Source: a virus (taxonomy: Duplodnaviria; Caudoviricetes). Taken from it: a stretch of DNA of 64,000 bases. The DNA is taken from the IMG/VR virus record IMGVR_UViG_3300023435_000009; one strand, 5' to 3'. The notes under the pieces are model-generated. The model saw only the letters and a list, made by a program, of their open reading frames with translations. It ran no database searches and had not been told where the DNA came from. Position numbers and translations under genes: made by a program. Positions 17,707-20,138 of this stretch are shown here, in pieces. Position 1 is the stretch's first letter, and each line of letters begins with the position of its first letter.

Positions 17707-17808
17707 GGGAAAACATCCAGGTTTTTCTCTGATGTTTTGGGACGAAAGTGCTGGACGGTGATATGCTTATACTTAGACTGTGATGACGGTTGTGATGGAG
17801 GGTTACGG

Positions 17809-18903
17809 ATGAGCATCGAAATCAGAGCGGAACTGCTGAAAAGCCTGAGTGGGAAGATAGCGGACACGGAGCCTCCGGCACGACGTTTGGCAACCCGCTG
17901 GGTCAAGGGCGGCGTCGAACGAGACTTCGACATAATGTTGCGCCTCCAGGTACTGGAGGGTGTCGCAGGCGTCCCCGTGGGTACCTGGATGGAGAAGCCG
18001 AGGCCGAGGGGTCAGCTTCAGCACGCCCAGAGCTACTTCGAGGACAAGGGTCATCAGATCCCTGCAGGATGGTTTTCCCCTGGCAACACTGGGATGTACA
18101 CCACGGTCTTCCGTTGTGTGGCAAAACTTATCAACAGCTACAAGCTCCGGTGGATCGATCCCCTAGACGTCATCACGAGCAACCTCATGGGCCTCGGAGC
18201 CAACCTTGGATCGATCAAACGTCCCGCCTACATGGTGGGCCAAAAGCTCAAGAAACGGATCCTGGACGGTCAGGAAACCCCCGTCAGCATTGGAATAGGG
18301 ATGCTCTGTAAGTACTTTGGGAACAAGGTAGACGTAGAGGAACGGAAGCAGCGGGATGTCCCGTACCCTGTGGACGAGGAAGGGAACCCCATCGAGTTCG
18401 GTGAGGCTGACCCCGCAGAAGACCCCAACCTTCTTAGTTATGACCCGGACGAGTTTGGGGAGTTCCTGGCAGAGGTGGTGTTCCGCCACACCCACGATCC
18501 GGTGGGTTCTAAGGTCAGGGATCTGATGCGGGCTGCTTGGCACGACAGTCCCCCTATGCTTCAGTGGCTCAGCATTGTGGAAGGTCAACACCGTTACCCG
18601 ACCCAGAAGGAGGTAGCGGAGAAGGCAGGCATAAGGCCCTCACCTTTCCATCAGCGGCACTGGAAGCCCCGGTGGAAGAAGTTCCTCCAAGCGCTCAAGT
18701 CCAAGCCCCGCCTGCTTACTATGATGGAGGAGAAGGCCAGCGATTACGGAATCTACTGGGATGCTTCTTCCCTCAGAGGTGTAGACATGGATTCCCTCCT
18801 GTCACCTCGACCCGACCGTCCACGCCCACGTGCCGCTGCAAACAACCAGGAACAGATCAAAAGAGTGGCCTCCAGGTACATCAGCACCTTGGGACTTTCC
18901 TGA
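17809..18903 (+). CDS. Hypothetical protein with C-terminal HTH
   Basis: GGAGG RBS; YPTQKEVAEKAGIRPS; RLATRWV and RVASRYI motifs. Confidence 0.65.
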   Translation: MSIEIRAELLKSLSGKIADTEPPARRLATRWVKGGVERDFDIMLRLQVLEGVAGVPVGTWMEKPRPRGQLQHAQSYFEDKGHQIPAGWFSPGNTGMYTTVFRCVAKLINSYKLRWIDPLDVITSNLMGLGANLGSIKRPAYMVGQKLKKRILDGQETPVSIGIGMLCKYFGNKVDVEERKQRDVPYPVDEEGNPIEFGEADPAEDPNLLSYDPDEFGEFLAEVVFRHTHDPVGSKVRDLMRAAWHDSPPMLQWLSIVEGQHRYPTQKEVAEKAGIRPSPFHQRHWKPRWKKFLQALKSKPRLLTMMEEKASDYGIYWDASSLRGVDMDSLLSPRPDRPRPRAAANNQEQIKRVASRYISTLGLS

Positions 18904-18949
18904 CAGACCGCTTGACACAGCCCACCATCATAGTCTAACTGTTCCATTG

Positions 18950-19515
18950 AGTCTGTAGGCTCGATCCAACCGGATCTTGAGAATCAGTTCTGGGAGTGCC
19001 TCTTCCGCCCCGCTTCGATGTTCCCTTCGGGGAAGTATAAGTCGGGGGTCTATCTGGATGTTCCTGGGGTCAGGGACACCAGCGATGAGGGGCAATCGGG
19101 TAACCGATGGGAAAGCCGTTGAGCTAGGCCGAATGTCTCCTGGATTGAGCCCGTTCTTTGAAGAACAGACAGAGTTCCCTCTTCCTGCAGGATGTCCTTC
19201 ATCCCCTCGGAAGAGGAGGTGGCAAGACCACGTGTGCCCTACCCTTTGAGGGAGGGACCGAAAGGAGCCCATGAGGATTGAGGATGATCCTCTCGTAAGG
19301 GTTGCCCCAGCATCTCCGGTTAAACCCCTAAGGTTATGGACCCTACATAGTCTTAGGGCATCCGATAGGATGCTCGTGGAATCAGTGATAGTGAAAATGA
19401 GAAAGTTGAAAACTAGAACCTTAGAGATCGTTACCGTGAGGTGAGTGATCCTGAAACCAACGGGCGAAAGCCCTATGGCCCTTTTATGGGGCCGATCTGT
19501 ATCCAAAGACAGGTT
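18950..19515 (+). ncRNA. Candidate large structured ncRNA (~560 nt)
   Basis: No credible ORF; over 12 short hairpins with GUAA, GGAA, GAAA, GUGA and UUCG loops on the plus strand; TTGACA at 18912. Confidence 0.55.
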
Positions 19516-19634
19516 TAACCGTCTTCTCCTTCCCCTTCCCTAACCCTGTGTAATCCCTGCCCTTATCTATACCAGTGCTGGATCTCCTTGCTGGTTTTCC
19601 TCCTATGAAGGAACCTGGGTGGGAGGGATCTACG

Positions 19635-20138
19635 ATGACGACCACCTATCTTGGAGAACAGGATCTACTGCTCATCGGTTTGGGGTGTGCCTACATCCAA
19701 GCCAACAAAGCGGTAGTGGATTTCCCTACGTCTACGAGGGCACATCCCTCTGAGTGGGTGGTGATTAGCAGGAACGTCAATCCTCCTGTTGGGGAAGGTG
19801 CTGATCGGTTCTTCCCCTTCAAGGTGAGTTGGGACATGTGGCAGTATGCCGTTGTTCCACTAATGCAGGGAGATGGTGACGAACTTTGGGTACAGTTCAA
19901 GAAGGGGGACGTGGCTGACTGGGAGACCTTGGTACGGGCTTGGGCTGCTCTCTTGAGGGAACAGGTCAATCCTACTGAGGTGTCCGTTTTAGACGCTGAG
20001 TTCCTGGCTTCCCTGATTGGGGAACCGATCCTAAGAGGCCCTCTGGCCCTGAGTGGGGACTCAGCCTACCCGGTTGTGGATCCCCAACTCGCATGGATCG
20101 ATGGACATCAACGGTTGCAGTACCCGGAGGTAGACTAA
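19635..20138 (+). CDS. Hypothetical protein
   Basis: GGGAGGG RBS before ATG 19635. Confidence 0.65.
   Translation: MTTTYLGEQDLLLIGLGCAYIQANKAVVDFPTSTRAHPSEWVVISRNVNPPVGEGADRFFPFKVSWDMWQYAVVPLMQGDGDELWVQFKKGDVADWETLVRAWAALLREQVNPTEVSVLDAEFLASLIGEPILRGPLALSGDSAYPVVDPQLAWIDGHQRLQYPEVD

Follow-up and report, generated by a model that had tools for sequence, protein, structure and literature searches.

The gene-free gap at the head of the DNA-replication genes of this phage very probably encodes a large structured RNA that is non-coding, is read from the plus strand and has so far been uncatalogued; its core is about 430 nt in length (18958-19379). That a conserved structured RNA is really present is, from the comparison of related phages, nearly certain. 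About 20 covarying helices, two long-range closing helices (P1 and Pc) and one kissing contact are predicted and, as judged from the loci compared, the RNA is kept at this one locus in at least 11 lineages of huge phages. A large, ornate plus-strand structured RNA behind TTGACA had been proposed in the initial annotation, and comparative covariation upholds that proposal. A literature search found no description of the RNA.

The gap and its occurrence in other phages

The DNA analyzed, a window of 64 kb (64,000 nt), is part of a 528,282-bp huge-phage contig from salt-lake metagenomes. Among the sequencing runs listed as containing this DNA, none was recorded as RNA. The gap occupies 731 nt (18904-19634) between the end of an ORF of 388 aa (18903) and the ATG at 19635. 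It had been described as free of genes, and gene callers place none in it on identical contigs. The locus is arranged as follows.

17737-18903, plus strand: upstream conserved gene, an ORF of 388 aa (364 aa from the called start) with RVASRYI at its end
18911-18917, plus strand: -35-like box CTTGACA, putative promoter of the RNA
~18935-18941, plus strand: weak -10-like TAACTG/CTAACT following the box
18958-19151, plus strand: domain 1, a multi-helix junction closed by the long-range helix P1
19153-19166, plus strand: linker between the domains, GUUCUUUGAAGAAC, boxA-like
19178-19379, plus strand: domain 2
19386-19634, plus strand: variable 3' tail with an A-rich linker, hairpins, TGTATCCAAA and the Shine-Dalgarno site of the next gene
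19635-20138, plus strand: downstream conserved gene, 167 aa, starting at ATG 19635

Homologs of the upstream protein (28-72% identity) directly precede the RNA in every lineage. No Pfam match was found for this protein. When its AF2 model (pLDDT 76) was compared by Foldseek, almost all of the 50 best matches were sigma chains (sigma-A) of RNA polymerase complexes, with weak E values of 0.05-0.5, and the VIA Z-scores of 5.5-5.8 were also weak, residues 200-308 lying on sigma region 3.2-4 with an rmsd of 2.4-5.9 over 74-84 residues. Based on the model, this protein is possibly a diverged sigma-70-family factor. For the 167-aa protein, the AF2 model (pLDDT 62) matched no known fold; its gene is followed by those for a zinc ribbon of ~70 aa, a clamp loader (PF13177) and a holA-like protein.

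Relatives were reached by aligning the 167-aa protein with a 56% relative, which led to L006, a 435.8-kb IMG/VR phage with a 796-nt gap before the homologous gene and a 30-nt block in common with the window. Further loci were collected with patterns made from this block and with homologs of the upstream protein. The homolog search, which the initial annotation had suggested as a check, thus returned 11 lineages with the RNA at the same locus, and 12 sequences from these lineages formed the comparison set. The gap sequences are 37-65% identical among the 11 lineages and the flanking proteins 25-63%. In every relative fetched the gap measures 700-1040 nt and has the same two gene families on either side; the order 388-aa family gene, gap, 167-aa family gene, zinc ribbon, clamp loader, holA-like gene is common to all lineages. 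The complete genome of L006 carries exactly one copy of the RNA, at 61.2 kb, and no paralog was identified within the window.

Other routes gave no relatives. No similar DNA was detected by blastn against 50,697 phage records, single-protein scans of viral contigs with the flanking proteins found no relative, and a pattern scan of genome contigs had 0 matches. Pattern matches L010-L014, L016, L018 and L022-L036 were chance matches within coding DNA and were discarded. L003, in which the neighbour protein is 56% identical, was left out because its contig stops 297 nt upstream of the 170-aa gene; no RNA core is visible in it, and two 41-nt direct repeats (TTAAAGAACAGNAATCCTATTGGAAGGAA...) lie at the contig terminus (L003 1-100). 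Two distant relatives of the 167-aa gene, L007 and L008, whose records are 26-31% complete, have gaps of ~1.3 and 0.5 kb without a match to the covariance model R1 described below. The gene-free gap of 1.3-1.5 kb upstream of the relative in L007 (4424-5991, GC 33%) may contain an RNA that is unrelated or has diverged very far.

When positions 18850-19010 of the window were compared with L002 (1-170) and with run X21, a divergence of at least 14% up to ~19000 gave way to near-identity beyond, which places a recombination breakpoint inside the 5' part of the RNA. The same recombination block was seen in contigs of 4 runs, in the strain variant L002 and in a marine contig; these near-identical strains are uninformative on selection. 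In L002 hairpin H1 is replaced by another GNRA-capped hairpin (UGGAUU-GUGA-AAUUCA), and the C-terminus encoded by the upstream gene differs.

Two-domain fold, covariation and coding potential

The initial annotation had pointed to the density of tetraloop hairpins in this region. Every hairpin that it named was located in the sequence and the density is real, yet taken alone it is weakly above chance. With a stem of at least 3 bp, 6 hairpins capped by GNRA or UNCG lie on the plus strand and 3 on the minus strand. For the plus-strand count, dinucleotide shuffles give 2.1 +/- 1.4 and attain 6 in 17 of 1000 cases; other 566-nt segments of the 64 kb attain it too. The MFE z-score is -3.2 for the plus strand and -2.75 for the minus strand. 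Which of the listed hairpins are real was decided by the comparative data, and the fold of both domains was derived from sequence-only alignments. The helices of domain 1, all on the plus strand, are listed here.

18958-68 / 19141-51, plus strand: P1, long-range closing helix of 8-11 bp
18970-74 / 18989-93, plus strand: H1, hairpin enclosed by P1
18997-19004 / 19087-94, plus strand: H5, UGCCUCUU/GAGGGGCA, lying within P1 and enclosing H2/H3 and H4
19008-12 / 19043-47, plus strand: H2
19021-25 / 19030-34, plus strand: H3, with a UUCG loop
19054-57 / 19079-82 and 19060-66 / 19071-77, plus strand: H4
19095-99 / 19104-08, plus strand: H6, with a GUAA loop, the cap being GNRA in every case
19109-12 / 19136-39, plus strand: H7
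19114-16 / 19123-25, plus strand: H8

The sequence of P1 is wholly different in some lineages while its pairing is kept: the two strands are GGCUCGAUCCA/UGGAUUGAGCC in the window, CUUGACUC/GAGUCAAG in L042 and GAACCGAUUC/GAAUCGGUUC in L006. At 19098-19125 a near-invariant core, GGGTAACC-N3-GGGNAAGCCNTTGAGCT, is identical in 5 of the 12 sequences and has 2-4 mismatches in most others. Counted by lineage, the block is present with 0-4 mismatches in 10 of 11, L048 having a shifted, more diverged form only. A GGC/GCC helix around H6 was dropped because covariation was absent. Inspection by eye suggested that domain 1 may also contain a CUAG-CUAG tertiary pairing.

Domain 2 comprises the following elements.

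19178-85 / 19209-16, plus strand: H10, enclosing H11
19190-94 / 19200-04, plus strand: H11
19228-32 / 19375-79, plus strand: Pc, the second long-range helix
19237-39 / 19254-56, plus strand: H13
19261-65 / 19305-09, plus strand: H14, weak in the window itself
19267-70 / 19299-302, plus strand: H15
19273-78 / 19287-92, plus strand: H16
19327-33 / 19351-57, plus strand: H17
19358-63 / 19368-73, plus strand: H18
19195-99 with 19280-84, plus strand: predicted kissing contact of the H11 loop (UCCUU) with the H16 loop (GAGGA)

Helix Pc reads CCACG/CGUGG in the window and CUACG/CGUAG, GUACG/CGUAC or CUAUG/CAUAG in relatives. A further helix, H12 (GUGG/CCAC), clashes with the better supported Pc and was dropped. 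In 11 of 11 lineages the apical loop of H11 complements that of H16, and the two change in concert (UCCUU/GAGGA, CCUUC/GAAGG, CCCC/GGGG, AUCCC/GGGAU), from which a kissing contact between them is predicted; that contact accounts for their resemblance to Shine-Dalgarno and anti-Shine-Dalgarno sequences.

Covariation, another check named in the initial annotation, was strong in both domains on alignments blind to structure. Domain 1 was tested on a MAFFT-only alignment of 8 sequences fitted to no structure (A9). In it 90.0% of cells pair, where shuffled alignments give 76.2%; both partners have changed in 38 of 57 pairs (18.6 when shuffled), and a covariation score of 0.563 compares with 0.289; every measure was reached in 0 of 500 shuffles, counts which are not probabilities because the sequences share ancestry. 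Sliding the partners by 1-3 columns lowered pairing to 33-56%, a contrast inflated by the structure having been drawn from the same sequences. When the alignment was fitted to the model and held 12 sequences (A10), 92.2% of cells paired, with changes on both sides in 50 of the 57 pairs. The covariance model R1, built from 8 sequences, recovered the held-out L038, L051, L048 and L047 at full length and in the expected place, with E values of 1e-13 to 1e-15, and had no other match at E<=1 in 332 kb of loci. For domain 2, a MAFFT-only alignment of 11 lineages (A11), with the kissing contact counted, gave 83.0% of cells pairing against 68.6% shuffled, 41 of 59 pairs changing on both sides against 25.9 (0/500) and a score of 0.488 against 0.239 (0/500), with 40-51% pairing in the slid controls, and these figures carry the same two qualifications. 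The less well supported helices are H3, H4b, H9, H13 and, in the window, H14.

Three hairpins of the initial annotation proved to be conserved and covarying, and four others were not upheld. TTCCC-TTCG-GGGAA is H3 and CGG-GTAA-CCG is H6, both of which are kept in relatives and covary. GCATCC-GATA-GGATGC, as H18, is also conserved and covaries, although GATA is not a GNRA loop. CCTC-GGAA-GAGG probably forms no hairpin: GGAAGAGG pairs with CCUCUUCC at 19178 in H10, and CCUC is a conserved junction. The segment of CC-GAAA-GG is used for helix H14 in relatives. ACC-GTGA-GGT (19433) and GGGC-GAAA-GCCC (19462), which fall in the variable 3' tail, show no conservation.

The plus-strand reading pairs better (92.2% and 83.0% of cells in domains 1 and 2) than the minus-strand reading (83.3% and 78.0%), a difference due to 67 G.U cells per domain. 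A protein-coding origin of the conservation, on either strand, is extremely unlikely. In the window an ORF of 192 aa on the minus strand (18928-19506) spans the entire core without a stop, and public gene calls overlie the homologous RNA in L048 (4154-4678, 174 aa), L042 (4292-4570, 92 aa) and L046 (4231-4560, 109 aa). These three calls lie on differing strands and frames and are probably spurious. No reading frame is open across lineages, 9 of 11 lineages having stops in all six frames of the core, and substitutions track base pairing rather than codons. The ORFs of the gap had no match in Pfam or PHROG, and an exhaustive comparison of the 192-aa ORF with 1.84 billion representatives returned one weak multi-stretch match (E 1.8e-6) and no protein family.

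Promoter, linker and 3' tail

TTGACA was confirmed at 18912-18917, as the initial annotation had placed it. A C[TC]TGA[CA] box, CTTGACA in most cases, is present in 12 of 12 sequences, 37-50 nt before P1 (63 nt in L048), with weak hexamers starting in TA 17-18 nt after it. In L002 the TTGACA box is retained amid diverged surroundings. A consensus scan called no full sigma-70 promoter and no terminator-like site. If transcription began near 18948, P1 would lie at the extreme 5' end of the RNA. In L046 about 270 extra bases (3997-4265) lie ahead of the CTTGACA box; CTGCCATCAGCTAA occurs three times in them, along with a GC-rich hairpin, GCGGCGGCC-TAAC-GGCCGCCG.

The sequence of the linker is conserved in most lineages. 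A hairpin within it, H9, was rejected as weak (pairing 64-69%, one pair changed on both sides). The gamma-proteobacterial boxA consensus is GYTCTTTAANA (PMC5725501), and GTTCTTTGAAG agrees with it at 9 of 11 positions, although this consensus may not be that of the host. The window shows no enrichment of the motif, with 4 matches where 1.9 would be expected. As in the rrn leader and at the boxA of lambda nut, the site of NusB/NusE, a conserved and apparently single-stranded GUUCUUUGA would stand in a long, folded, untranslated transcript, predicted here to start from a putative host-type promoter; unlike in those systems, the motif lies ~200 nt into the RNA, between folded domains, and not in a short leader. 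The boxA-like linker is taken as a lead only, and a boxA function for it is doubtful on the sequence match.

Alignment conservation fades beyond ~19385 into an A-rich linker and lineage-specific hairpins, and the tail hairpins at 19433, 19462 and 19476-92 are not conserved. TGTATCCAAA at 19498-19507 is semi-conserved, appearing as GTGTATCAAAA or GTGTATTAAAA directly after a GC hairpin in L017, L006 and L038; it might serve the downstream gene as a -10-like element or mark a site of processing. The tails of several relatives contain 3-5 copies of AAAGTTTC/AAACTTTG (L006 5830-5915, L017 3690-3770, L043 4755-4810, L046 4950-5000, L047 4860-4975), which may be operators, promoter elements or iterons, and the tail of L048 has longer direct repeats. 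The window tail is without AAAGTTTC/AAACTTTG copies.

The 5' untranslated part of a transcript of the replication genes (167-aa gene, zinc ribbon, clamp loader) is the main rival to an RNA with a role of its own. As such a giant cis-acting leader, the RNA would control the operon through antitermination at boxA, processing, stability or binding of a phage protein, and would have no role off the message. It always lies directly upstream of the same operon and in the same orientation, its linker is boxA-like, and the scan called no terminator between it and the gene. Against this, a poorly conserved tail of ~250-450 nt separates the core from the start codon, so that the core cannot mask the ribosome site directly; by eye, the tails of L043 and L047 contain a terminator-like GC hairpin followed by a U run; and known leaders need far less than a kissing contact, two closing helices and twenty helices that covary. 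The leader is accordingly held to be possible but, on balance, unlikely.

The promoter-driven RNAs ColE1 RNA II and the T4 oriF/oriG transcripts prime DNA synthesis via a persistent hybrid. Like them, the predicted transcript would be folded, ~500 nt long, driven from a promoter beside replication functions and followed by an A/T-rich stretch, and a replication origin in which a structured pre-primer forms its hybrid behind domain 2 would be consistent with the locus heading the replication module, with the putative promoter, ~450 nt of folded RNA and A-rich stretch found in every lineage, and with the iteron-like boxes of several relatives. The fold is far more elaborate than in those systems and is conserved by covariation, and we know of no RNA II-type pre-primer that needs a compact tertiary fold with kissing loops. 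The gap in the window is without repeats, and cumulative GC skew does not turn at the locus there, nor in the complete 435.8-kb relative, where it falls steadily past the RNA. The origin, which the initial annotation had offered as its alternative, thus gained no support from repeats or GC skew and is considered improbable.

Known RNA classes and proposed role

Known families were searched with the models of Rfam 15, at the gathering score and at E<=10 with permissive filters, using 1.1 kb of the window and three relatives, and no match other than Xist noise was obtained. The initial annotation, which had called for this cmscan comparison, had reported no hallmark of RNase P, tmRNA or group I/II introns, and none of these matched at E<=10. 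Neither did 6S RNA. A group I/II intron was also rejected on the neighbouring genes: the upstream stop (18903) and the downstream ATG (19635) are each conserved as the ends of separate proteins, and with both genes complete there are no exons to join.

GOLLD (RF01998) and ROOL (RF03087), the large ornate RNAs of phages and prophages (PMC12286853), are the closest known systems, in kind only. They have in common with the present RNA a length of hundreds of nt, many helices with tetraloops, tertiary contacts, carriage by phages and the lack of coding function. They usually lie beside tRNA genes, whereas the tRNAs of the window are at 2167-4778 and the RNA is 14 kb away in the replication module; the ~430-nt core in two domains behind its own putative promoter is a further difference. 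Neither covariance model was matched at the gathering score or at E<=10. A very diverged GOLLD, ROOL, group I/II intron or RNase P RNA missed by the models would explain an RNA that is large, ornate, phage-borne and tetraloop-rich, as GOLLD and ROOL are (PMC12286853), but in view of the empty search, the complete flanking genes and the distance from the tRNA island it is very improbable. Of the two possibilities left by the initial annotation, membership of GOLLD or ROOL and a new class, the latter is favoured.

An RNA acting in its own right is favoured over a leader because the fold exceeds the need of any known leader and because a long variable tail precedes the start codon; the chances of an independent function, as opposed to a pure leader, are nevertheless put at about even. 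In the mechanism proposed, a host-type (sigma-70-like) RNA polymerase would start at ~18948 and the RNA would fold co-transcriptionally into two compact domains. It may then act as a scaffold, as part of a ribonucleoprotein or as a catalyst, tied to the early or the replication programme, with a partner that is perhaps one of the two always-adjacent proteins, the possible sigma-like factor or the 167-aa protein. The linker GUUCUUUGA may recruit Nus factors, which would allow the polymerase to cross ~700 nt of untranslated RNA without Rho termination, perhaps into the replication genes.

Large and intricately folded RNAs are, to our knowledge, rare, and almost every class that we know to be understood (ribosome, RNase P, introns, riboswitches) has proved to be a machine. 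The recently solved structures of GOLLD, ROOL and OLE revealed unexpected RNA-only assemblies. The fold described here may tentatively be read, at somewhat less than an even chance, as a new class of large two-domain RNA machine, more than just a leader, that huge phages would employ in their early or replication programme. Such a machine could be a partner of the sigma-like or the 167-aa protein, a ribozyme or a self-assembling scaffold.

Gene callers have probably laid spurious ORFs over this RNA in several public contigs. What the analysis contributes is a fold of ~430 nt that is well supported and includes long-range helices and a kissing contact that covaries; it comes with a conserved promoter box and, in half-megabase phages, a constant position next to the replication genes and a possible sigma-like factor. 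It offers a concrete object for cryo-EM and a handle on how huge phages use RNA during takeover of the cell.
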